Assembly: GCA_964400795.1 (NCBI GenBank)
Contig: CAYNWA010000002.1
Span: 171,146 to 235,145, forward strand
Reading direction: 5' to 3'
Source of the DNA: an uncultured Smithella sp.
GTDB taxonomy: Bacteria > Desulfobacterota > Syntrophia > Syntrophales > Smithellaceae
DNA: 64,000 nucleotides
Below, piece by piece: positions 5,826-63,112 of this stretch. The notes beneath the pieces were generated by a model that saw only the letters and a list, made by a program, of their open reading frames with translations, did no database searches and had not been told where the DNA came from. A program made the position numbers and the translations under genes. Every line of letters begins with the position of its first letter. The first letter of the stretch is position 1.

Positions 5826-5891
5826 CTGCCCTAATTGTGACTCGCCGGGATAGGTTGTGCCAAAAAAGTTATCTAAAGAAGAAACGTGGTA

Positions 5892-6248
5892 TTACAGCTC
5901 CGGAACACCTGACGGTATGATACACGCAAAAATCAGTTTTTCACTACCCGTATTTCTAACCTGATGTTCTTCACCGAGCGGCATGAAAACAACATTTCCC
6001 GCCTGCAAAGGATTCCATTTGCCGTTACCGTATATTTCACCGGCGCCGGAATGAATAAACATTTCGTGCTCCCAGGGATGAGTGTGCTTTGGCGTATATC
6101 CTCCTGGAGCGACTTCAAAAACACGCATGCAAAAATTATTCGCGCTGTCAGCCTTACCCGCGACCACTCGTCCGGCAACTCCTTTCGCTGTACCGCCATT
6201 AAATTTAGTCGGTGAAACGGATGTATAATTTATTAATTTCATGGCCAC
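5892..6248 (-). CDS. Cupin domain protein
   Basis: 118 aa with cupin metal motifs (GGYTPKHTHPWEHE ... GNVVFMPLGEEHQVRN). SD agaggtgg. Confidence 0.8.
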   Translation of the reverse strand: MAMKLINYTSVSPTKFNGGTAKGVAGRVVAGKADSANNFCMRVFEVAPGGYTPKHTHPWEHEMFIHSGAGEIYGNGKWNPLQAGNVVFMPLGEEHQVRNTGSEKLIFACIIPSGVPEL

Positions 6249-6256
6249 CTCTTGTT

Positions 6257-7615
6257 TTAATCAGTTAAATGTGCAAATACTTCACTTAGCGTCGGATGCG
6301 GCATCACCCAGTTGCGCAGTTGCTTTTTGGTCATTTCATTCGAAACCGCCAGTGTCAGAGGCGAGATAAGTTCGGCGGCTTTTTCGCCTACGATTGTCGC
6401 ACCGATAAACTTACCCTGATGAAAAATCGCTTTCACAAAACCCTGCCCCATCAATTCCGCACGGGCAATGATATTGGCACTGTATGGTGATTTGACAACT
6501 TCTACCGCCAGACCTTCATCTTCCGCGCGTTTTTGCGTATAACCCACACGTGCGATCTGCGGATGACTGTAAACAACGGAAGGAATAAAATTTTCGTTAT
6601 AGGGAAAGTCTCCATTGCCAAAGATATTTTGTGCGGCATATTTTGCCTGTTGCATCGCCCGGTGCGCCAGCATCATGCCACCGGTTACGTCGCCAATCGC
6701 GTATATGCCGGGAACATTCGTCATCATATTTGAATCAACCTTGATTCCGGCTTTTGTATATTCGAGACCCAGCTTGTCCAACTCGTCCGTATTCAACAGA
6801 GGCTTTCTTCCGGTACAAAGAAGCGCACAGTCGACGCTGATTTCCAATTGTTTGCCGTCTTTTTGAGCAACCATAACAACCGAGTTGCCTGTATCTTTCA
6901 GGCTTTCCAGTTTTGTAGAAGTATGTATGGTAACACCTAGGCGGGCTAATTCCTGTTTAAATAAATCAGCACATTCCTGATCCTCAAGGGGAATAATCCT
7001 GTCCAGTATTTCCACGATGGTTACTTTCGAGCCCAGCTCGGCAAAGAAGGTGGCGAACTCAACACCGATCACACTGCCGCCGACAATGATGATGCTCGCC
7101 GGAAGCGTATTTAAATTCAAAATGCCGTCCGATGTTAGAATTCTTTCGGAAAGACTGATTCCCGGAAGCACCTGCGGCACGGAGCCCCAGGCAATCATTA
7201 TATTTTGAGTTGATAAATTTTCGCTCTTGCCTGATGCATCGGTAAAACGAACTTCCGATGGAGAAATAATTTCGCCAACCCCCTGTTTGTTTTCCACTCC
7301 GGCATCGGTAAGCAGTTTTTGCGCGCCGAGAGCCGAGACCTTCACAATCTGCTGCTGATGTTTTTTAATGGCGGAAAAATCAACAGACGCCTCCGCAATA
7401 TTTATTCCCATTCTCTTCAGTTTTTTCAAATCCGTGTAATACTTGCTACACGAAAGCAGCGCTTTGGTCGGAATACAGCCCCGGTGTGTGCAGGTGCCGC
7501 CCCAGCCGTTCTTTTCAATAATGAGAACTCTTTTTTTCTTGGCCGCGGCAACTTCCGCCGCCGCCAGTCCCCCCGGTCCCCCACCAATTATTATCAAATC
7601 ATATTTTTCAGACAT
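6257..7615 (-). CDS. lpd: Dihydrolipoyl dehydrogenase (E3 / L-protein)
   Basis: GGGPGG FAD fold, redox-active disulfide GGTCTHRGCIPTK, NAD fold GGSVIGVEF, C-terminal HPTLSE interface motif. Confidence 0.9.
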   Translation of the reverse strand: MSEKYDLIIIGGGPGGLAAAEVAAAKKKRVLIIEKNGWGGTCTHRGCIPTKALLSCSKYYTDLKKLKRMGINIAEASVDFSAIKKHQQQIVKVSALGAQKLLTDAGVENKQGVGEIISPSEVRFTDASGKSENLSTQNIMIAWGSVPQVLPGISLSERILTSDGILNLNTLPASIIIVGGSVIGVEFATFFAELGSKVTIVEILDRIIPLEDQECADLFKQELARLGVTIHTSTKLESLKDTGNSVVMVAQKDGKQLEISVDCALLCTGRKPLLNTDELDKLGLEYTKAGIKVDSNMMTNVPGIYAIGDVTGGMMLAHRAMQQAKYAAQNIFGNGDFPYNENFIPSVVYSHPQIARVGYTQKRAEDEGLAVEVVKSPYSANIIARAELMGQGFVKAIFHQGKFIGATIVGEKAAELISPLTLAVSNEMTKKQLRNWVMPHPTLSEVFAHLTD

Positions 7616-15901: not shown

Positions 15902-17317
15902 ATGGACGAACAACGAAAAGAAATGTTGAAGCAGTTACCGAAAATTGATGAAGTTCTGCTAATTCTAGAGAAGCAAAACATTTACGACCTGGCGCCGAAA
16001 GACGTCGTCAAGGAAACCTGCCGTAAGATTGTACAGGATCTACGCGATAAAATCGTCAACACCAAGAAGAAACTGCCTGCGGAATTCAGTCCCGATGCTA
16101 AAACAGTAGCCAAAGAGGTGGAAAAATCAATCAAAGGATTGTACCGTTACAGCCTGCGCCGTGTCGTCAATGCTACCGGTGTTATCCTGCACACCAACCT
16201 GGGACGCGCGCCGCTTTGTCCCGAAGCACTGGAAAGAATTATCGAAGTGGGCAAGGCCTACTCCAATCTGGAATTTGATTTAACCAAAGGCGAACGCGGC
16301 CAGCGCTACGACCATGTCAGCTCGCTGCTTTGCGCCCTAACAGGAGCCGAAGACGCACTGATCGTCAACAACAACGCCGCAGCGGTTTTACTGGTGCTAA
16401 ATACGCTGGCCCAGAAAAAAGAAGCCATCGTATCCCGCGGCGAGCTTATTGAAATCGGCGGTGAATTCCGCATTCCGGAAATCATGCAGAAAAGCGCGAC
16501 AAAACTTCGCGAAGTGGGAACGACCAACCGCACGCGCCTGAGCGATTACGAAAAAGCCGTCAACGACAAAACCGGTCTGATTATGAAAGTCCACACCAGC
16601 AATTACCGCATTGTGGGATTCACCGAAGAAGCAAGCATTGAATCGCTGGTTGAACTGGGAAAAAACAGGGGCATTCCGATCATGGATGATCTGGGCAGCG
16701 GTTGCCTGATCGACCTTGACCTCTATGGTCTGCAGCACGAACCGACGATTCGCGAAAGACTGGCCACCGGCGTTGATGTGGTCACCTTCAGTGGTGACAA
16801 ACTGCTGGGCGGCCCACAGGCTGGCATCATTGTCGGTAAAAAGGACGTTCTTGCAAAAATCAAAAAGAATCCCTTGAACCGCGCCCTGCGTATCGACAAA
16901 TTCACACTGGCCGCTCTGGAAGCCACACTGATGCTCTACTTGAATACCGCTACGGCACCCAAGAAATTAAGAGCGCTGAAAGCGTTAACCGAACCTGTTG
17001 AGGATGTTAGAAAACGCGCTGAGAAATTAATTGCGAAACTACAGAAAGAAAACTTCGCCTCGCTGAAATTTTCCATCCGCGAAGACTTCGCGGCAGCCGG
17101 AGGTGGTTCTTTGCCTACGCAGCAGATTCCGACTGTTTTGGTCGCTGTCCAAAACAAAAAAATGCCGGCGACAAAGATGGAAGAAAAACTGCGCCAGCTC
17201 GACGTGCCCATCATCGCCCGTGTGGATAAAGACGAAATCCTTTTCGATTTACGCACAGTCTCTGAGGATGAATTTGCTTTCATCGTCGAAGGTTTGAAAC
17301 AGATAACGGCTAATTAA
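15902..17317 (+). CDS. selA: L-seryl-tRNA(Sec) selenium transferase
   Basis: 471 aa, SelA-specific PLP-lysine region FSGDKLLGGPQAGIIVG, typical N-terminal LP.IDEVL segment. Confidence 0.9.
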   Translation: MDEQRKEMLKQLPKIDEVLLILEKQNIYDLAPKDVVKETCRKIVQDLRDKIVNTKKKLPAEFSPDAKTVAKEVEKSIKGLYRYSLRRVVNATGVILHTNLGRAPLCPEALERIIEVGKAYSNLEFDLTKGERGQRYDHVSSLLCALTGAEDALIVNNNAAAVLLVLNTLAQKKEAIVSRGELIEIGGEFRIPEIMQKSATKLREVGTTNRTRLSDYEKAVNDKTGLIMKVHTSNYRIVGFTEEASIESLVELGKNRGIPIMDDLGSGCLIDLDLYGLQHEPTIRERLATGVDVVTFSGDKLLGGPQAGIIVGKKDVLAKIKKNPLNRALRIDKFTLAALEATLMLYLNTATAPKKLRALKALTEPVEDVRKRAEKLIAKLQKENFASLKFSIREDFAAAGGGSLPTQQIPTVLVAVQNKKMPATKMEEKLRQLDVPIIARVDKDEILFDLRTVSEDEFAFIVEGLKQITAN

Positions 17318-17484: not shown

Positions 17485-17533
17485 AACTTAAGTCATGCGT
17501 TTCATCTGTAAAATTCAATTTCAGGAGGGCGGC

Positions 17534-18670
17534 ATGAAAAATTTTAAAAGCGCAAAAATAAATAGTTTAGTTTTTCAATTCCTTCTAACATTCGTTTTAA
17601 TAATAATCACAGCACAAACAGGCAATTGTTTTGCCATGCGATCAAAAGGAACAAAAGACAGTATAGACAATTTAAGCTTTTCCCATGATGGGAAGAAAGT
17701 AATATTTGACCGCTGCCGTGAAGGCTGCCAGATACAGGTCTATAATCTGGAGACAGGCGAACTGGCCGCCTATCAATCGCCCGCCAACGAACGTTGGACA
17801 ATGGCAAAGCAGTCTTATGATGGCAAAAAGATAGTATTATCCGTCATGCCTGTTATTGACGGACATGTTGATCTCTCCGAAATGCAGATCGCCGTCATGG
17901 ATGCCGACGGGAAAAATTACAAAAAGATAACCAACGGCCCCGGCGCCAAGCTCTATCCCACCTTTTCGCATAACGGGAAAAAGGTTCTCTATGCCCGTGC
18001 GGCGTACATGAGAAAGAGCGGCAAAACACCCGCCGCGCAGTACGATGCATGGGAAGTTGATTTAACAACCGGCACGCAGAGGCAACTTACCTTTTTCAAA
18101 TACTTTTATATGGGATATCTTACGTATTTGCCTGATGACGAACGATTTATCTATTATGGTGAAATGCCTGAGGCATTTCCCGGTCTTGATCTGCCGAAAG
18201 GTGATCCCAGAAAAGCGCAGGAAATGATCAGGCAGGAACAGATGAAGAGGAAGATTGGCATAGCGGGCATATTAGTCATGAAGAGAGGCGAAGACCTGCC
18301 GCAGGAACAATACCATTTTGGCAAGGGCTTTAACGCCGAACGGCCGCTTTTGAGCAAGGACGGCTCCAAGCTGATCGTTGAAAAAAGTGTATCAGCGGGT
18401 GAATTTTATCTCTATTCAGCGGATGGGAATCATCGGCTCGTGGGAGAAGGCGGTTCTGTTAATGCCGCGGCTATATCGCCGGATGGAGAACTGTTGGCGA
18501 TGATAGCTTTCAGTTTACATGTTTTTACAGTTCGGGACGGCAAACGAAAAGTAATATTATATTTACCATCTGCACCTAAGACAATTGAAAATTGGGAGGT
18601 AGCATACCGAGGAAGTGAAAATCTATACAGGATGATACCAGCAAAACCATTGCGTATACTCAACAGATGA
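17534..18670 (+). CDS. Secreted TolB-like beta-propeller (PD40/WD40-like repeat) protein
   Basis: SD aggaggg before the ATG at 17534. Signal peptide. Repeated PD40-type signatures SHDGKKVIF, SYDGKKIVL, SHNGKKVLY, SKDGSKLIV, SPDGELLA. Confidence 0.75.
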   Translation: MKNFKSAKINSLVFQFLLTFVLIIITAQTGNCFAMRSKGTKDSIDNLSFSHDGKKVIFDRCREGCQIQVYNLETGELAAYQSPANERWTMAKQSYDGKKIVLSVMPVIDGHVDLSEMQIAVMDADGKNYKKITNGPGAKLYPTFSHNGKKVLYARAAYMRKSGKTPAAQYDAWEVDLTTGTQRQLTFFKYFYMGYLTYLPDDERFIYYGEMPEAFPGLDLPKGDPRKAQEMIRQEQMKRKIGIAGILVMKRGEDLPQEQYHFGKGFNAERPLLSKDGSKLIVEKSVSAGEFYLYSADGNHRLVGEGGSVNAAAISPDGELLAMIAFSLHVFTVRDGKRKVILYLPSAPKTIENWEVAYRGSENLYRMIPAKPLRILNR

Positions 18671-55558: not shown

Positions 55559-57487
55559 TTATATTTCATCACCCGCTTTATATCCCTCGTGAATGGCTTC
55601 CAGAATCCGGCGCGGACTCTTTGCATCGCCAACAACCCTGTAGGGAATAGCCAGTTCCTTCAGCGTATCCTCCAATGCGTTATCTGATCTGGCGCCCATC
55701 GCGGTTACAATCAAGGCTGCTTTTTCCTCTTTTTCTTCACCCATCTGTTGATAACGCACGATATCATCTTCGATAGCCAGTACTTTAGCGCCGAACAGCA
55801 GTCTGCAGCCACTCTCCTTGATCCGTTTGTGCAGCCAATAACCATGAGCCGTGAGTTTTCCCACCGGCGGAAATGCCTGCATCTCCAGAACAGTAACCGC
55901 AATGCCTTTGGCGAGTAGATAATCCGCGGTTTCCATTCCCACATATCCGGCGCCCAGAATCACAACCGGACTTTTGAGTTCAATCTTGCCCGTAAGCACA
56001 TCGCGCGCATCTACTACTATTTTTGAATCCAGTCCGGAAACCGGAGCCGTCACCGGATAAGCGCCACAGGCCAGTATGACCGCATCAGGCCTTTCTTGTT
56101 TTATCGCATTTGCGTCAACTGTATGTTCATACTTTATATTAACGGATGCTTTACCCAAAGAACGCAAAGACCACGAAACCCAATCCATGAAGCTCTTTTT
56201 GTGCGGCGGACGGCTGGCTGATAAAAGTTGTCCCCCTGCCTGTTCCTGTTTTTCAAAAACGTCCACCTTGTGCCCTCTGGCGACCACCGCCATGGCAGCG
56301 GAAAGACCCGCCGGGCCTGCTCCAACAATCCAGACATGCTTTGGAGGATCAGCCTTGGGCGCCACTCCTTTATATTCGCGTCCGCACTCCGGATTGAAAC
56401 TGCACGTTGCCGATTTCAGCTCGAAACTCAATCGTTCGATGCAACCCTGATTGCAGGCAACGCACCAGCGAATATCATCACGCTTTCCTTCACGGGCTTT
56501 ATTGATAAAATCAGGATCGGTCAGATGCTGACGTCCGAAACTGATCAGGTCGGCATCACCTCTGGCGATGGCCTGATCGGCCAGCTCCGGATCATTGATA
56601 CGACCGACACCGATAACGGGAACATTGACCACTTCTTTTACAGCGCGGGCACGGAACAAATTAAATCCGGGATCGGTATCCATGGAAGCAATGGAAAGAC
56701 CACCGGGCGTGGAATAAACTCCCACGGAACAATGAATGGCATCAACCCCGGCCTCAACCAGTTTCGGCGCAAATTTCAGCATGAAAGACAAATCATAACC
56801 GCCGCGCACCAGTTCATCAGCCGATATACGAATCCATACAGGGAAATCACGCCCCACAACTTTTCGTACAGCTGCAATTATTTCCAGAACAAAGCGCATG
56901 CGGTTTTCATCGCTTCCGCCATATTGATCTTCGCGCTTGTTGGAAAAAGGAGAAAGAAACTGATTCAATAAATAACCATGAGCGCCGTGAAGCTCCACGG
57001 CATCAAAACCCGCCTGACGTGCCCGTCCGGCCGCCCGGGCGAAGGCGTCTATCACTTCGACAATACGTTCCTGAGACATCGCTTCGCAAGGCTGACCCAA
57101 GATAACACTGGGAATGGCCGAAGGCGCCTCCGGCATGGCACCGGCCGCCGCCTCAAACGTTTCACGTCCGGCATGATGCAGTTGCAGCGCAGCCTTGGCT
57201 CCATAGCGATGCAAGGCCTCCGGAATGCGCGCCAGTCCCGGAATAAATTCATCGCTCCACACACCAATTTCACTGGGAAAGCCCTTGCCGCGCGGTACAA
57301 CAGCGCATACTTCCGTAATAATCAGACCGGTTCCTCCCTGCGCCCGGCGTGCCAAATACGCCAGCAGCCGATCGCTTATCGTACCGTCGCTATTACCGTA
57401 ACCGGTACCCATGGGCGGCATCACCGCCCGGTTTTTCAAGGTCATTCCATTAATAGTGATGGGTGAAAAAAGATGCGGGAAATTCAT
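55559..57487 (-). CDS. OYE-family FMN oxidoreductase fused to an FAD/NAD(P) domain (2,4-dienoyl-CoA reductase / NADH oxidase-like)
   Basis: N-terminal OYE TIM barrel (LFSPITINGMTLKNR..., HGAHGYLLNQFLSP), CVACNQGC Fe-S motif, Rossmann folds GAGPAGL and GAGYVG. The SD ggagga favours the ATG at 57487 over 57499. Confidence 0.85.
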   Translation of the reverse strand: MNFPHLFSPITINGMTLKNRAVMPPMGTGYGNSDGTISDRLLAYLARRAQGGTGLIITEVCAVVPRGKGFPSEIGVWSDEFIPGLARIPEALHRYGAKAALQLHHAGRETFEAAAGAMPEAPSAIPSVILGQPCEAMSQERIVEVIDAFARAAGRARQAGFDAVELHGAHGYLLNQFLSPFSNKREDQYGGSDENRMRFVLEIIAAVRKVVGRDFPVWIRISADELVRGGYDLSFMLKFAPKLVEAGVDAIHCSVGVYSTPGGLSIASMDTDPGFNLFRARAVKEVVNVPVIGVGRINDPELADQAIARGDADLISFGRQHLTDPDFINKAREGKRDDIRWCVACNQGCIERLSFELKSATCSFNPECGREYKGVAPKADPPKHVWIVGAGPAGLSAAMAVVARGHKVDVFEKQEQAGGQLLSASRPPHKKSFMDWVSWSLRSLGKASVNIKYEHTVDANAIKQERPDAVILACGAYPVTAPVSGLDSKIVVDARDVLTGKIELKSPVVILGAGYVGMETADYLLAKGIAVTVLEMQAFPPVGKLTAHGYWLHKRIKESGCRLLFGAKVLAIEDDIVRYQQMGEEKEEKAALIVTAMGARSDNALEDTLKELAIPYRVVGDAKSPRRILEAIHEGYKAGDEI

Positions 57488-57637
57488 TGATTCCTCCATT
57501 ACAAAAATAATTTAAAGACAAAATTTTGATCGACACTCAATCATATTGTCATTTAAACAATATGACTGAATAATAAAGTACCACTAAATCTTTAAAGAGT
57601 CAGTTGATTTTTTAAATCAAGATGAGATTATTTTATT

Positions 57638-58183
57638 TTATTTTATGTTGCGTTCTATTTTCTCAATCAGCGTTTGGGTTTGATCCGGCAGGAGCGCAAA
57701 CCCCATATCGTTTCTGTAAATGACATTCATTTTTTTATCGATGATCACATAGACGCGTTTGGAAAGCGGCAGCAGCCAGTGGTCGGCTTTGTACATTTTG
57801 GCGATTCTGCCTTTTTCATCCACCAGCAGGGTCATGTTTTTCAGGCCGTGCTTGGCGATAAACTTGCGGTGCGATTCGGCCGAGTCTCTCGACAGGCCGA
57901 GGATTTTGATATTTTTGGCGTTGTATTTTTCGATGTTTTGTTGAAACTCAACAAACTGGCGTATTCAAAGCTTGGTGTCGTCTTTGGGATAAAAGGCGAG
58001 CACGACGGCACGATACTTTTTGACGGCATCGCTGAGTTTCCAAGTTTTCCCGTCCTGATCGGCAAGTGTAAAATCGGGAGCTATCTGACCGGCGACGGAA
58101 GTTGTCGTTCTGACATCCGTTCCCGCGCAGGCAAATAGTACGAAAAGAAAAAACAAAATAAATAAAGACGAAATGCGTCGCAT
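57638..58183 (-). CDS. Predicted selenocysteine-containing BCP/peroxiredoxin-like lipoprotein (in-frame TGA at 57965-57967)
   Basis: ORFs 57965..58183 and 57638..57835 are in the same frame, and the 129 nt between them is open. The joined sequence reads ...VVLAFYPKDDTKL-U-IRQFVEFQQNIEKYNAKNIKILGLSRDS..., matching the PxxxTxxC active site with U in place of C. Lipobox LFAC; SD aggagg. Confidence 0.75.
57935..57956 (-). promoter_or_regulatory. Candidate bacterial SECIS stem-loop
   Basis: Starts 9-10 nt after the UGA: GUUUGUUG AGUUU CAACAAAAC (7 bp plus a bulge, G/U in the apical loop). Confidence 0.5.
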
Positions 58184-58256
58184 AAGACCTCCTGAGTAAA
58201 AGGTTGCGGCGGGCAGCTACTTGGGAAACGCCGCCCGCCGTTGATGCTGGAAAGGG

Positions 58257-58982
58257 TTAATCGTCGAACGCCATCTTGGTTTTCCAGACTTCCCAGACCT
58301 TGCCCACCAGATCGGGGCCGGGTTTGAGCGTCGGCTTGCCGGGTTTCCAACCGGAGGGCGTGGCTTCGGCGCCTTTGGTTTTGCGCACGTGCTGGAAGGC
58401 CTGAATCTGACGGATGCTTTCCATGACGTTGCGTCCGACCGGCGGTGTCAGCACTTCAAAGCCCTGAATGATGCCGTCCGGATCGATGATGAACCGGCCG
58501 CGGGCTTCCACGCCGGCATCCTGAAGATAAACGCCAAAGACGTCTCCGACCTTGCCGCCGCCGTCGGAGAGCATGGGGAAGGGGATGCCGCCTTTGACCA
58601 TTTTGGAAAGTTCATGGTCATCCCACATTTTGTGGACAAAGACGCTGTCCACACTCATGGATAAAACTTCAACGCCGAGTTTTTTGAATTCGGGATATTT
58701 CTCGCCGACCGACGAGATTTCGGTTGCTCAGACGAAGGTGAAGTCGCCCGGATAAAAACACAGGACAACCCATTTCCCCAGATAATCGGAGAGTTTAACA
58801 TTGATGAATTTCCCCTTGTGATACGCGGGCGCCGTGAAGTCGGGCGCTTTCTTTCCTACAGTAACCATGCTTTTGACCTCCTTGACAGGTACGGGTTGAG
58901 CGGTTTCTTTCTTCACGTCGGGTTTTTCGCCGACCGGTCCGCCGGTGGGTCTGGCGCAGCCGGCCTTGATTTCTTCAGCCAT
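58257..58982 (-). CDS. Predicted selenocysteine-containing peroxiredoxin (AhpC/Prx type; in-frame TGA at 58728-58730)
   Basis: ORFs 58728..58982 and 58257..58658 are in the same frame, with 69 open nt between them. The joined sequence reads ...[39 protein letters not shown]..., i.e. FTFVCPTE with U in place of C. An alternative start at 58868 also has a strong SD. Confidence 0.8.
58700..58717 (-). promoter_or_regulatory. Candidate bacterial SECIS stem-loop
   Basis: Starts 11 nt after the UGA: UCUCGUC GGUC GGCGAGA (7 pairs including one G-U, GGUC tetraloop). Confidence 0.5.
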
Positions 58983-59019
58983 AGACGATGCCCTCCTTTG
59001 TTTTATTTTTGTCGCTTAT

Positions 59020-59334
59020 TTATTTTTTTGATTTCTTCATTTTCGCGATTTCTTCCTCCACTTCTTCGGAGCCTTCGGCATAAAATTTTTCTTCATCCGG
59101 CGCCAGCTCGTGCAGCAGTCTTAAAAACTCCCCGGCGTGAACGCGTTCCTCGTCGGCAATGTCCCTGAGGACCTCGATGGCCAGTTTGTTGTCGGTTGAC
59201 TCCGCGAGCTGCATGTAAAGTTGGATGGCTTCATATTCCGCTGCCACCATAAAGCGAATGGCTCTGATCAGTTCTTCTTTGGTCAGTTTCCTGTCCTTCT
59301 TCAACCCTGAAAAAGGTGTTCCAAATTCCGGCAT
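59020..59334 (-). CDS. Small ferritin-like (EncFtn-type half-ferritin / rubrerythrin-family) protein
   Basis: 104 aa. Two-helix pattern AAEYEAIQLY ... DIADEERVHAGEF, with Glu ~33/35, Glu 62/63 and His 66, similar to the E..E..H ligand spacing of encapsulated ferritins. SD aaggagg. Confidence 0.55.
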   Translation of the reverse strand: MPEFGTPFSGLKKDRKLTKEELIRAIRFMVAAEYEAIQLYMQLAESTDNKLAIEVLRDIADEERVHAGEFLRLLHELAPDEEKFYAEGSEEVEEEIAKMKKSKK

Positions 59335-59611: not shown

Positions 59612-61312
59612 TTATTTCTCCCTCGGATACGGCCAGGCCATAATGCCGCCTTCCATGACCTTGACGTTTTTCCAGCCGTTTCCTTCCAGTGCCAGCGCCG
59701 CCTCATAACCGCGTAGGGATATCTTGCAGTATAGAATAATTTCGCGGTTCTTGTCTTCGGGCAGTTCCTTGAGGCGCTTACGGATCGCGCCGAGCGGTAT
59801 CAGCGTCTCACCGATGCCTAAACGCATCTCTTCGAATTCCTCCGGTCCGCGTGTATCTATCAGGAAAGGTTTCTCTCCGGCCCGTATTTTATCATAAACC
59901 TCTTTACAACTGATACCTTTCATTCTGCCTTTCATTTTGTTCTGCATAATATGTGCTGTGGCGATGAAGTGATCGATGGCTAGGGAAAAGGGCGGCGCAT
60001 AGGGAAGATCGGCGTTGACAAGATCCTCCACGGTCATCTTGCCCTGGATGGCCATGGCCCACTGGGCAATCTGTTTGGCGACATTGCCGGGGCCGATACA
60101 CTGCGCGCCAAGGACGCGGCCGGTTTTGGCATCAGCGGTTAATTTAGTTACCAGAAGCTTGCCTTCCATGAATCCCGGTTTGTCGGGACTGGTGTTGATG
60201 ACCGTGATGATGTCGGAATAACCCAGACGCTTTGCCGCTGTTTCCGAAAGACCCGTGGAACCGGCTCCGTAATCAAAAACCTTGCAGATGCCGGTCTGAA
60301 TTGTTCCCGGAAAGGTCACGCAATTTGTCGAGGCGGCGTTTTCACCTGCCACGCGTCCCTGAAGATTGGCCAAGTCGCCATAGGGCGCGTGGACTTTTTT
60401 GCCGGTGATGCGGTTGAGGGTTTCCACGCAGTCGCCCACGGCGTAAATGTCCGGGTCGGAGGTCTGCATGTATTCATTGACCTCGATACCGCCCAGGTCT
60501 CCGATTTTCAAACCGGCTTCTTTGGCCAGTGTGATGTTGGGACGGACACCGATGGCCACAACGGCCAGTTCGCAGGGAAGCTCCGTGCCGTTTTGCAGTT
60601 TGACCGCTGTGAGTTTTCCGTTTTCACCCAGGAAAGCGGCTATGCCGTTTTCGGTAATGACGTTGGCGCCCTTGCTCCGCACATGGTTTTCCACCAGCTT
60701 GGCCAGTTCCCAGTCCAAAAACGTCAGCAGTTGAGGAAGCAGTTCAATGACGGTGATTTCAATACCCGCCAGTTGCAGCGCTTCGCAGGTTTCTATACCG
60801 ATGAGTCCGCCGCCGATGACCACGGCCTTTTTGATTTTACCTTCATCGCGGACGTTACGCAGAAAATCGGCGTCCTTCATGGATTGTAATGTGGTAATGC
60901 CCTGGAGATCCGTGCCCGGAACCGGCGGCATGCGCGGAACCGCACCGGTCGCGATAACAAGCTTGTCGTACGTTAACGTGTCGGTTTCTCCCGAAACGAC
61001 ATTTTTAAAAGACACCGAATGATTTTTTGTGTCAATGTTGGTGACCTCGGTATTGACGCGGGCGTCAATGTCCTTGGCGTTAAGATAAAACATCGGATTG
61101 CGCACGATCCCTGCAGGTGTGCAAAGAAGCGCATTGCGGTCGTTAAAAAAACCTCCGACATAATACGGATAGCCGCAGGACGCCATGGAGAGGTCGGCTT
61201 CCTTCTGGATAATGATGACTTCCGCGTCGTTGTCGATGCGTCGGGCTTTTGCCGCCGCCTTGGGACCGGCGGCCGAACCGCCGATGACGATGATTCTTTT
61301 TCTATTACCCAT
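59612..61312 (-). CDS. CoA-disulfide reductase / NADH-dependent persulfide reductase-like flavoprotein with a C-terminal rhodanese domain
   Basis: IIVIGGSAAG FAD fold, single redox Cys in SMASCGYPYY, NAD fold VIGGGLIG, C-terminal rhodanese with active-site loop YCKISLRG. SD aaggag 6 nt before the ATG at 61312 (ORF-track start 61351 is TTG). Confidence 0.85.
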   Translation of the reverse strand: MGNRKRIIVIGGSAAGPKAAAKARRIDNDAEVIIIQKEADLSMASCGYPYYVGGFFNDRNALLCTPAGIVRNPMFYLNAKDIDARVNTEVTNIDTKNHSVSFKNVVSGETDTLTYDKLVIATGAVPRMPPVPGTDLQGITTLQSMKDADFLRNVRDEGKIKKAVVIGGGLIGIETCEALQLAGIEITVIELLPQLLTFLDWELAKLVENHVRSKGANVITENGIAAFLGENGKLTAVKLQNGTELPCELAVVAIGVRPNITLAKEAGLKIGDLGGIEVNEYMQTSDPDIYAVGDCVETLNRITGKKVHAPYGDLANLQGRVAGENAASTNCVTFPGTIQTGICKVFDYGAGSTGLSETAAKRLGYSDIITVINTSPDKPGFMEGKLLVTKLTADAKTGRVLGAQCIGPGNVAKQIAQWAMAIQGKMTVEDLVNADLPYAPPFSLAIDHFIATAHIMQNKMKGRMKGISCKEVYDKIRAGEKPFLIDTRGPEEFEEMRLGIGETLIPLGAIRKRLKELPEDKNREIILYCKISLRGYEAALALEGNGWKNVKVMEGGIMAWPYPREK

Positions 61313-61347
61313 AAAATTCTCCTTAAAAACATATTGATATGTGTCGC

Positions 61348-62106
61348 TCAATCTTTACTGATCTCTTCTGTCTCTTTCTCTCCATTCACTGGTAGGTTCT
61401 GATCTTTTTCAACTTCATCCCCGAGGAAAGGCTCAATCGGTTCAAAATCGGCAATCCAAAGAGGATGACGGTGCCGCGCATAATCCAAACGAACTTTTCC
61501 CGTAAATATTCCGCGGATCATAGGCCAGTTAGGTCGCAAAGCGATCGCCGCCATGTGCGCCAGGAAAATCAGAAAAAACAAAACGAAAAAAATATTATGA
61601 ATCCAGCTCGCCCACAACAAGATGGCATGGGACATATCGGGCGCATAAATATTCTTGTAGGTTTTGACCAGGCCGGACAGAATAAGCATCAAGATGATAA
61701 AAGCCATCCCTGCATAAGCGAGACGTTGTTCCGGCAGATATTTTTTCATGGGTGGCTCCTTTCCGAAACCCAATAAGCTTCTAATAACGGCAATGGATTC
61801 GGAAAAATCATGCTTCTGGGGAAGCAATCCTTTTTCACCGCGCAAACCATGATAGAAAACATGAAACAATGCGGTCGCTGTAAAAATCAGCGCTGCTCCG
61901 TAATGAAGATAGAGTGACGTAATAAAATCGGCAGACCAGCCAAGCCCTGGAAAATGAACGATGTAGTAGCGTTTGCCCACCGGTAGCTCAAATATTCCGG
62001 TGAGAAGAAGAACAAGGCCGGAAAGGGCAATCGCCCAATGTTCGATTAATTCCAAAGCGCTGTGGCGGACAATCAGATTTTTTTCAAATAATATTTTTTC
62101 AGTCAT
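61348..62106 (-). CDS. Membrane b-type cytochrome (FdnI/HyaC-like, Ni_hydr_CYTB family)
   Basis: Four predicted TM helices with conserved His (IEHWAIA, HYGAALIF...FH, WIHN...AHM). Start at the MTEKILF ATG with SD-like gggggaa. Follows the Fe-S subunit gene after 4 nt. Confidence 0.75.
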   Translation of the reverse strand: MTEKILFEKNLIVRHSALELIEHWAIALSGLVLLLTGIFELPVGKRYYIVHFPGLGWSADFITSLYLHYGAALIFTATALFHVFYHGLRGEKGLLPQKHDFSESIAVIRSLLGFGKEPPMKKYLPEQRLAYAGMAFIILMLILSGLVKTYKNIYAPDMSHAILLWASWIHNIFFVLFFLIFLAHMAAIALRPNWPMIRGIFTGKVRLDYARHRHPLWIADFEPIEPFLGDEVEKDQNLPVNGEKETEEISKD

Positions 62107-62110
62107 GGTC

Positions 62111-63112
62111 CTATTCCCCCTTTCCCGCTTCATCTCTTCTCTTGAACAACCAATTAAACGCACCAGCCACACCAGCGGCAGCGATTCCCAATACAGGAGC
62201 AGCCAGTACTGTCCTGGCTAAGCAATCCGTTCCTTCCATTCTTCTCTGAACATCAACTTTCATATCGGGCTGACCGGGTTTCTTTATCATGGTTTTATTG
62301 ATTTCTTCAAACGGAACCGGTGAAACGTAAATCGTCGCAGTGCCTCCATTTTGAGTTTTGCCGTAGATGAAGCCATTCATTTTTCTCGCACGGGATTCGG
62401 CTATTTTTTCGATAGCGTTCCGGGAACCGATCAACAATGCTTCCCGGGGACAGGCTTCGATACAACCGGGCAATTTCCCGTCAGCCAATCTTTCCACACA
62501 TAAATCGCACTTGTACATCACGCCATTACCCATCAGCCCCGGCAACACATTCAGGTAGATACCGACACCGGATTGACGTTGCGGAATTTCCCAGGGACAA
62601 ACGTCGCGACATTTCGCGCCACCGAAACAAAGATCCTGATCAATGACCACGGCTCCGTTTTTGTTCTTATGATTGGCGGAAAACGGGCAGATCGTCGCGC
62701 AAGCGGGATTATCGCAATGCATGCAGCGACGCGGCACAAAGACCGTTTTTTGCTGACTGCCTAAATTAACTTCGGCTTTGTGCACGTAAATAAAATTATA
62801 AGGGGTAAGGCGATTGAATACATCCTGCTTTTTGGACCAGTCTTCAATGGTTTTGCGTGGCCATGGTTCGGGAATGGGTTCCGTTACCGGTGGTATTTTA
62901 TCTTTGTTGATTGTTTTACATGCGCTGACGCATGCTGGTATATTTCTGCCGGTGCAACCATCGCAGAGGCTTAAATCAATGAGCGTTGATAATTTTTTGT
63001 CGCTTTTGGCCAATGCTTTTTTCGGCAAACCAAAACCGGAAAGAGCTGCTGCTCCGGCTGTCAGCTTTAAAAAAGATCGGCGACCGATATGAAAGTTATG
63101 TTCAGTGCTCAT
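62111..63112 (-). CDS. Tat-exported 4x[4Fe-4S] ferredoxin-type subunit with a C-terminal membrane anchor (HybA/FdnH-like)
   Basis: Twin-arginine signal HIGRRSFLKLTAGAAALSG...ALA. Cys clusters CMHCDNPACATICP, CFGGAKCRDVCP, CDLCVERL...CIEACP. C-terminal TM helix VLAAPVLGIAAAGVAGAF. Confidence 0.85.
   Translation of the reverse strand: MSTEHNFHIGRRSFLKLTAGAAALSGFGLPKKALAKSDKKLSTLIDLSLCDGCTGRNIPACVSACKTINKDKIPPVTEPIPEPWPRKTIEDWSKKQDVFNRLTPYNFIYVHKAEVNLGSQQKTVFVPRRCMHCDNPACATICPFSANHKNKNGAVVIDQDLCFGGAKCRDVCPWEIPQRQSGVGIYLNVLPGLMGNGVMYKCDLCVERLADGKLPGCIEACPREALLIGSRNAIEKIAESRARKMNGFIYGKTQNGGTATIYVSPVPFEEINKTMIKKPGQPDMKVDVQRRMEGTDCLARTVLAAPVLGIAAAGVAGAFNWLFKRRDEAGKGE

Follow-up and report, generated by a model that had tools for sequence, protein, structure and literature searches.

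The 64,000-nt stretch of contig CAYNWA010000002.1 from an uncultured Smithella sp., referred to below as the window, carries on its minus strand, at 57638..58183, a gene for the precursor of a BCP-type peroxiredoxin (Prx) in which codon 73 is UGA and would be decoded as selenocysteine (Sec). This gene, designated here Sec-BCP, is with a probability of about 0.9 a genuine peroxiredoxin gene in which Sec is decoded. The broader statement, in which Sec decoding is taken together with export, lipidation and peroxidase function of the product, is likely as well, at a somewhat lower level of confidence.

The in-frame TGA and its conservation

The minus-strand frame running from 58183 to 57638 contains exactly one in-frame stop ahead of its TAA terminator (57640..57638), namely the TGA at 57967..57965, which is codon 73. 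The open reading frames (ORFs) 57965..58183 and 57638..57835 lie in this same frame with 129 open nt between them, and the joined product comprises 72 + 1 + 108 = 181 residues (181 codons including UGA73), begins with MRRISSLFILFFLFVLFAC and ends with NIK; around codon 73 it reads ...VVLAFYPKDDTKL-[UGA]-IRQFVEFQQNIEK..., the first residues after the UGA being IRQFVEFQQ. The two frames, the open interval and the joined length had already been given in the preliminary description of this region, and every one of its sequence statements holds. A Shine-Dalgarno sequence, AGGAGG, can be read at 58188..58193 of the minus strand, and its 4-nt spacing from the ATG at 58183 supports this ATG as the true start. 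With Cys put at the TGA, residues 32-156 match the Pfam domain AhpC-TSA (PF00578) with E = 3e-31 and 108.4 bits against a gathering cutoff of 26; because the match covers both sides of the TGA, one domain spans it.

Homologues were collected by a search of 5.8 billion proteins and by a genome scan of one genome per species (GTDB) with the clade alignment as query, the latter yielding 80 loci. Distinct orthologues were considered intact if they were undisturbed over a span beginning 45 codons ahead of the TGA and ending 85 codons behind it, and in all 59 such orthologues TGA occupies the same codon. The alternative residue at this column, which the preliminary description had suggested comparing among related genomes, is seen in distant homologues: at identities of 41% or less the column is mostly Cys (TGC/TGT), with some Sec, as exemplified for Cys by Obscuribacterales and Blastocatellia (PKDDTPG-C-TKEMC). 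When the C-terminal 108 aa were used as an index-free HMMER query against 1.84 billion representatives, the strong matches were fragments only, and no full-length Cys form of the clade was obtained. Two candidates for full-length relatives were rejected, P0128 as a chimera or fragment and P0130 as a Sel1/TPR repeat protein matching 'EWLLPLAK'.

The members of the clade come from dozens of Smithella, Smithellaceae and Syntrophaceae metagenome-assembled genomes (MAGs), the top match having 86% identity, and from several Spirochaetota and Leptospirales MAGs; the matches in the first group make a Smithella-like Desulfobacterota genome the very probable source of the window. Additionally, a second subclade with 43-56% identity and the motif FYPKDDSRN-U-T[PS]EFVEFQRN was found as a paralogue in genomes that also have the main clade, as in the case of L017 and L051 on one Smithellaceae chromosome (OY821638.1), and it is also present in Desulfobacterales, Desulfohalobiaceae and the isolate Desulfatitalea alkaliphila M08but.

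The public gene calls for P0001-P0008 and L001-L008 are systematically wrong, either in translating the TGA as Trp under genetic code 4 on short contigs or in splitting the gene into products of 72 and about 108 aa. The protein search gave four close homologues of full length (61-86% identity) that have Trp at the TGA column, and four fragments, of about 105 aa, that represent no more than the region past the TGA; wherever the DNA of these homologues was retrieved, every 'W' proved to be a TGA miscalled under code 4, and each C-terminal fragment had the N-terminal half and the TGA directly 5' of it. Such splitting by gene callers (P0005-P0008, as well as a GenBank fragment of 108 aa named 'redoxin domain-containing protein') is what would be expected if the locus were a pseudogene or a pair of small genes, one for a 72-aa lipopeptide and the other for an internally initiated C-terminal fragment, and two loci, L001 (nt 4-140, in the signal-peptide region) and L065 (nt about 6000-6500, in several places), do look frameshifted, owing either to assembly errors in low-coverage contigs or to occasional pseudogenisation. 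However, in a codon alignment of seven genes, protein identity after the TGA was 0.69-0.86 against 0.47-0.73 before it and was equal to or higher than the upstream value in 20 of the 21 pairs, and 43 of the 48 invariant degenerate codons downstream of the TGA varied synonymously. It follows that the sequence past the TGA is translated and subject to purifying selection, by which a pseudogene or genuine termination is excluded. Moreover, neither half of the single Trx-fold domain that spans the TGA could fold alone, both halves are under purifying selection with no other disruption, and the position of the TGA is invariant among the 59 orthologues from Desulfobacterota and Spirochaetota, while pseudogenes do not retain one specific stop codon over such divergence. 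Rather than ending at this codon, an outcome for which the preliminary description had allowed, the orthologues stay open for about 108 further codons, which are conserved and rich in synonymous changes, and we regard a pseudogene or split gene as scarcely credible.

The hairpin downstream of the UGA and the decoding apparatus

A hairpin resembling a Sec insertion sequence (SECIS) is located at 57937..57955 of the minus strand and consists of the 5' arm UUUGUUGA (57955..57948), the loop GUU (57947..57945) and the 3' arm UCAACAAA (57944..57937). It can be drawn with 8 bp and the GUU loop or, alternatively, with 7 bp and the loop AGUUU, and it begins 9 nt after the UGA, with a distance of 17 nt from UGA to loop; the stem-loop of 7-8 bp with an AGUUU loop, placed 9-10 nt past the UGA in the preliminary description, is thereby recovered. 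In the bacterial SECIS (bSECIS) model, a loop of 3-9 nt and a stem of 4-16 bp are found 16-37 nt from the UGA (PMC13188914 Fig. 2), the loop has a G in its first two positions, typically as N1-G-[G|U]-N-N2 with N1 and N2 paired, and the minimum free energy (MFE) is -7.5 kcal/mol or lower (PMC13188914). The loop of the Sec-BCP hairpin (A-G-U-U-U, with an A-U closing pair), its stem and its spacing fit three of these four constraints.

Comparison of the orthologues is more telling than the folding of any single sequence. The 20-nt hairpin core is identical in the first seven genes, in which the flanking codons vary synonymously, and among 51 distinct orthologous sequences all of the 408 cells of the stem (408/408) are standard pairs. 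Two of the eight stem pairs show a compensatory U-A to C-G double change, one-sided changes are absent from these 51 sequences, and sliding of the register cuts stem pairing to 35-62%. In one of the compensatory events, a synonymous change of Phe (TTT to TTC) is coupled to a non-synonymous change of Gln to Arg (CAA to CGA), and in the other, Val to Ala is coupled to a synonymous change of Gln. At the same time, the mean synonymous heterozygosity of the six hairpin codons (FVEFQQ) in the 59 genes is 0.03, against 0.35-0.44 in the next most constrained fully conserved six-codon stretches, including that of the active-site motif AFYPKD. The predicted energies of the orthologous hairpins range from -5.9 to -20.6 kcal/mol. 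Hence, a SECIS-type structure, on which the preliminary description had made its proposal depend, is present as a conserved and covarying hairpin.

As for the decoding apparatus, the window contains selA (15902..17317, plus strand), the gene for L-seryl-tRNA(Sec) selenium transferase, identified by the Pfam SelA match (3.5e-158) and by TIGR00474 with 626 bits against a cutoff of 268. It is not followed by selB, the next ORF (17495..18670) having only a weak match to PD40 repeats.

The reading of UGA as a standard amino acid (Trp, Cys or Gly), by an altered code or by near-cognate suppression, would agree with the several public gene calls that give W under code 4 and with the energetic weakness of the hairpin. 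It is opposed by the fact that TGA serves as the terminator of 13 of the 48 other ORFs of the window, with the long ORFs intact under translation table 11, and by a scan of the window for in-frame TGAs, in which the only convincing cases were two Prx genes, Sec-BCP and its upstream neighbour, both with TGA at the column of the catalytic Cys; the other in-frame-TGA candidates look like antisense or shadow ORFs and were rejected. Since TGA stops translation elsewhere and interrupts only these two peroxiredoxins, the code is standard and the recoding site-specific. The presence of SelA and the RNA-level selection on a hairpin held at a fixed distance from the UGA point the same way. It is also a matter of Prx chemistry that Trp or Gly at the peroxidatic position is inactivating. 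Decoding as a standard amino acid is accordingly considered very improbable, and insertion of Sec remains the preferred explanation.

Family affiliation, export and proposed function

In alignment with canonical BCPs (PKDDTPGCTKQAC) and with the PDB entry 2ywn, the TGA column coincides with the peroxidatic Cys within a P-x3-T-x2-U motif, P66-K-D-D-T70-K-L-U73 (57965..57988, minus strand), whose TGA is conserved in all family loci, and the position of the resolving Cys at +5 is taken by Val78; both assignments had been made in advance of this analysis and are confirmed by it. The conserved active-site arginine of peroxiredoxins, Arg143 (codon at 57755..57757, minus strand), is invariant in alignments A1, A2 and A4, and P66 and T70 are likewise conserved, with Ser replacing Thr70 in subclade 2. 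Apart from the lipobox Cys19, the mature protein has no Cys. In two Smithella MAGs (L013 and L030), the otherwise invariant Pro is replaced by Ala (FYAKDDTKL-U), with the TGA and the hairpin kept.

The top sequence matches in the PDB are BCP/PrxQ proteins (2ywn, 2.9e-16; 3drn, 1.7e-13). An AlphaFold model of the 69%-identical orthologue P0003, which has a code-4 'W' at the Sec position and was used for backbone and fold only, gave a predicted local distance difference test value (pLDDT) of 84.7 and a predicted template modelling score (pTM) of 0.78, with the N-terminal 30 residues disordered and position 73 in the first turn of helix 71-81. Foldseek placed it closest to Bcp1 (3drn) and M. tuberculosis BcpB (5epf), at target-normalised TM-scores of 0.81-0.83. 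The earlier designation of the product as a BCP/Prx-like protein with a PxxxTxxU active site, and its BCP/PrxQ-type affiliation, are supported by the sequence and by the predicted fold. 1-Cys BCPs exist, and so the missing resolving Cys at +5 does not exclude this subfamily. The best NCBIfam matches, PrxQ NF053650 (68.9 bits, cutoff 260) and BCP NF006960 (66.0 bits, cutoff 140), fall far below their cutoffs, which means that no curated model covers the Sec-BCP subfamily. The PrxU model NF040737 gives 32.9 bits and does not reach its cutoff of 270, and a UxxC/UxxU motif is not present in Sec-BCP, in which U is followed by I-R-Q-F with no Cys.

The signal peptide would be encoded by codons 1-19 (58127..58183, minus strand; MRRISSLFILFFLFVLFAC) and would end in the lipobox L-F-A-C (residues 16-19), with Cys19 as the lipidation site predicted from the pattern. 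Nearly all orthologues start with a basic n-region followed by 12-15 hydrophobic core residues, most have Sec at codon 73, and in approximately three quarters a Cys near position 19 stands in a lipobox-like context (LSAC, ISAC, LLAC, LTAC and LSGC being common). Because this pattern is conserved across the orthologues, predicted export is a conserved trait of the family, and predicted lipidation is a frequent but not a universal one. The closest Cys homologues (35-41% identity) are also exported BCPs.

In the mechanism proposed, UGA73 would be recoded as Sec by SelB and Sec-tRNA(Sec), recruited via the 8-bp GUU-loop hairpin 9 nt downstream, a step based on the conservation of the TGA, the covarying hairpin and SelA, which are all seen in the data, and on SelB, SelD and tRNA-Sec, which are presumed. 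The signal peptide would then direct the precursor to the Sec translocon, Cys19 would be lipidated, and a membrane-anchored protein of about 162 residues would face the periplasm, as the conserved sequence features suggest. The U73 selenolate, activated by Thr70 and Arg143, would reduce H2O2 or organic hydroperoxides and be converted into selenenic acid, to which the complete conserved Prx catalytic set and the fold point. Since the mature protein has no other Cys than that of the lipobox and Val in place of the resolving Cys at +5, an external reductant is required, and the enzyme would act as a '1-Sec' Prx recycled by an external periplasmic reductant.

The genes within 4.5 kb on either side were tallied for all family loci. 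In 27 loci, including that of the window, a PrxU gene lies about 80 nt upstream of Sec-BCP on the same strand. In the window it occupies 58257..58982 (minus strand), has one in-frame TGA (58730..58728) in the context FYPGDFTFV-[UGA]-ATE and matches NF040737 (peroxi_PrxU) at the equivalog level, with 418.3 bits against a cutoff of 270; the earlier statement that the adjacent gene also uses Sec at its catalytic position is thus borne out. Its own SECIS hairpin, UCUCGUC-GGUC-GGCGAGA (58717..58700, minus strand), is not significant when folded alone (z = -0.28), and in about 25 genomes it follows the pattern UCUCNNC-GGUC-GNNGAGA, with the GGUC loop in 24 of the 25 variants and covariation at two stem positions. 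Further upstream, in 18 loci, stands a gene for a CoA-disulfide-reductase-like flavoprotein with a C-terminal rhodanese domain (CoADR-rhodanese; 59612..61351, minus strand, in the window), the best matches of which are CoA-disulfide reductases, below the equivalog cutoffs; it is counted here as genomic context rather than as a partner. Between PrxU and CoADR-rhodanese, genes for an EncB-type ferritin-like protein and for a small protein with a domain of unknown function are sometimes inserted. An exported double-rhodanese is encoded directly downstream of Sec-BCP in nine loci, and a Fur/PerR-like regulator is found nearby in seven, while the Spirochaetota and subclade-2 copies stand without PrxU. 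The cluster with cytoplasmic PrxU and CoADR-rhodanese, which is conserved in Smithella-type genomes, fits a two-compartment peroxide defence in strictly anaerobic syntrophs.

This same neighbourhood, with its recurring rhodanese-domain proteins and no thiol-reductant partner, could also be taken to indicate a genuine exported selenoprotein with a role other than peroxide reduction, i.e., a selenol oxidoreductase acting on persulfides, polysulfide, sulfenic acids or another periplasmic substrate, and both the distance from the characterised BCP/PrxQ proteins (69 and 66 bits for cutoffs of 260 and 140) and the lack of a resolving Cys would be compatible with it. Yet the full Prx catalytic set is kept (P-x3-T/S-x2-U and Arg), Sec stands at the start of helix alpha-2 as the catalytic residue does in peroxidases, the gene is linked to PrxU and in seven loci to the Fur/PerR-type regulator, and the nearest Cys homologues are ordinary exported BCPs, so that such a role seems unlikely and peroxide reduction is retained as the probable function.

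A more far-reaching version of the peroxidase proposal, which is speculative and, on balance, improbable, although slightly less so than the role just discussed, would see here a Sec-only family of periplasmic lipid-anchored '1-Sec' peroxidases recycled not by the DsbD/thioredoxin route but by an unconventional or non-protein periplasmic reductant, candidates being sulfide, persulfide, thiosulfate (by way of the exported rhodanese encoded nearby) and a c-type cytochrome. These enzymes would protect the oxygen-sensitive periplasmic formate dehydrogenases and hydrogenases needed by syntrophs such as Smithella. Unconventional recycling would be possible because reduction is much easier for a selenenic than for a sulfenic acid and because the former withstands over-oxidation.

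Several points weigh against Sec decoding or against the functions attributed to the product. Taken alone, the Sec-BCP hairpin folds no better than shuffled sequences (-6.9 kcal/mol, z = -1.07), so the case for it rests on the comparative data, and its energy narrowly misses the MFE cut of the bSECIS model; this cut is a search threshold and not a functional criterion, and a strict scan of the bSECISearch type could miss the hairpin. Rfam gave no SECIS or other credible match, either for the whole window at the gathering threshold or for 57500-59100 searched permissively. The Sec machinery, absence of which the preliminary description would have counted against itself, is seen in part: SelA and the PrxU selenoprotein are present, but SelB and SelD were not found within the 64-kb window, and ARAGORN detected no tRNA at all in it, including tRNA-Sec. 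The claim of an exported lipoprotein is supported in its first half, by a conserved signal peptide and a lipobox Cys in most orthologues, and less firmly in its second, about a quarter of the orthologues having an AxA-type cleavage site instead of the lipobox Cys and the LFAC of the window protein being non-canonical, with Phe at -2, compared with [LVI][ASTVI][GAS]C, to which the LSAC, ISAC, LTAC or LSGC of many orthologues conforms. With NCBIfam scores below the equivalog cutoffs, the protein can be called BCP-like and not an equivalog of characterised BCP or PrxQ. Finally, no DsbD/ScsB/CcdA/TlpA-type reductant that would close the catalytic cycle recurs within 4.5 kb in the family loci.

Some other features of the region were observed as well. 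The EncB-family encapsulin ferritin-like cargo protein of the window (104 aa; 59020..59334, minus strand; NF058679, 97.7 bits, cutoff 90) is encoded within the peroxide-defence cluster, where no neighbouring gene for an encapsulin shell is evident, and has the same place in five other Smithella-type loci. Genes for a 4Fe-4S dicluster protein (Fer4_11) and a cytochrome b561-type membrane protein (61348..63112, minus strand) adjoin CoADR-rhodanese, as they also do in L012 and L014, and seem to form a membrane-bound redox module; the FdnH-like Fe-S protein and cytochrome b had suggested a formate dehydrogenase operon in the region 61.3-64 kb, which was rejected, the next ORF being TehA-like and not a molybdopterin subunit. 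The intergenic region between PrxU and Sec-BCP (58184..58256, minus strand; -31.4 kcal/mol, z = -3.26) contains an 11-bp GC-rich hairpin, GGCGGGCGGCG...UGCCCGCCGC, followed by CCUUUU and the strong AGGAGG, and this hairpin may be a partial terminator or an mRNA-processing or stability element setting the ratio of the two peroxiredoxins. On the other side, between the stop codon of Sec-BCP and an OYE/FadH-type flavoenzyme gene (55559..57499), a perfect 17-bp palindrome, UUCAGUCAUAUUGUUUAAAUGACAAUAUGAUUGAG, is located at about 57520..57575, in a region with a folding z of -4.23 and an overlap with promoter-like hexamers, and its function could be that of an operator or of a bidirectional terminator.

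Relation to known peroxiredoxins and selenoproteins

Since the mid-2000s, lists of prokaryotic selenoprotein families have included 'Prx, pfam00578, TxxU', with a T/SxxU/C active site (PMC1794560, PMC2398784 Table 2), and its conserved PxxxTxxU motif is cited in a 2026 review (PMC13188914). Having the T/SxxU motif and PF00578 that define it, Sec-BCP belongs to this family, which it also resembles in the peroxidatic Sec of its PxxxTxxU motif, in a bacterial SECIS directly after the UGA and in its occurrence in selenoprotein-rich anaerobic Deltaproteobacteria/Desulfobacterota. The terms periplasm, lipoprotein, signal peptide and BCP are absent from the reviews consulted. The member given there as experimentally verified, PrxU of Eubacterium acidaminophilum (Sohling et al. 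2001, as cited in PMC13188914), is a cytoplasmic protein of the AhpC/Prx1 type, whereas Sec-BCP is of the BCP/PrxQ type, with a predicted signal peptide and lipobox and no resolving Cys; the PrxU hairpin has the loop GGUC, and that of Sec-BCP is AU-rich with the loop GUU. A further difference from PrxU and the Prx family is that no Cys orthologues of the Sec-BCP clade were found.

The best sequence and structure matches of Sec-BCP are with the BCP/PrxQ proteins (the E. coli BCP model NF006960, Sulfolobus Bcp1 3drn, M. tuberculosis BcpB 5epf and S. tokodaii 2ywn), with which it has in common a monomer-sized Trx fold and the PKDDT-x2-[C/U] context, and from which it differs by Sec for Cys, Val for the +5 Cys, the predicted lipoprotein anchor and, as motifs specific to the family, ADHWLLPLSKRVY and a C-terminal helix. 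That a peroxiredoxin can work in the bacterial cell envelope and not in the cytoplasm has a precedent in PprX of Caulobacter crescentus, which is Cys-based and is reduced through ScsB/TlpA (PMC3322552); the comparison is by description, not by sequence, and in contrast to PprX with its identified membrane electron donor, no ScsB, DsbD, CcdA or TlpA gene recurs near Sec-BCP. The 'Prx-like thiol:disulfide oxidoreductase' selenoproteins (PF00578, UxxC/UxxU), listed, for example, for Syntrophus aciditrophicus (PMC1794560), share the Pfam domain and the kind of organisms with Sec-BCP but have a thioredoxin-like UxxC where it has TxxU followed by I-R-Q, and because it has no UxxC, Sec-BCP is not one of them.

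In other selenoprotein families, secreted or lipoprotein members are on record. The remark in the preliminary description that a Sec-containing lipoprotein in the periplasm is the less common case is plausible, and exported Sec-BCPs also occur in Poribacteria, including a form with two domains and two Sec residues. In the Poribacteria MAGs L077, L079-L081 and L084-L086 (about nt 5890-6890), one exported ORF contains two BCP domains and two in-frame TGAs in the layout 78 aa - U - 150 aa - U - 103 aa, each TGA following FYPKDFTGG and having its own GC-rich hairpin, so that a double-Sec secreted peroxiredoxin is predicted; L082, L083 and L087 have a single-domain exported Sec form. As Sec-BCP answers to the listed Prx definition and exported Sec-BCPs are found in Poribacteria, we rate it a poorly annotated addition to the known selenoproteins. 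The new element is a clade of 1-Sec BCP-type proteins, predicted to be exported and apparently Sec-only, for which no curated model exists and which public records annotate wrongly.

Sec-containing peroxiredoxins are textbook prokaryotic selenoproteins, and Sec-BCP extends existing knowledge without overturning it. A coherent clade from more than 60 genomes has been mis-annotated as a pair of 72-aa and 108-aa products, as a 'redoxin domain-containing protein' fragment or, via code 4, as a protein with an active-site Trp. Its very short AU-rich SECIS, which just misses the energy threshold of SECIS-based predictors, provides a concrete example of how SECIS scans under-count selenoproteins. For the organisms themselves, the finding would mean that strict anaerobes have in their cell envelope a predicted selenol peroxidase lacking a resolving Cys, and the nature of its reductant becomes a testable question in periplasmic redox biology.

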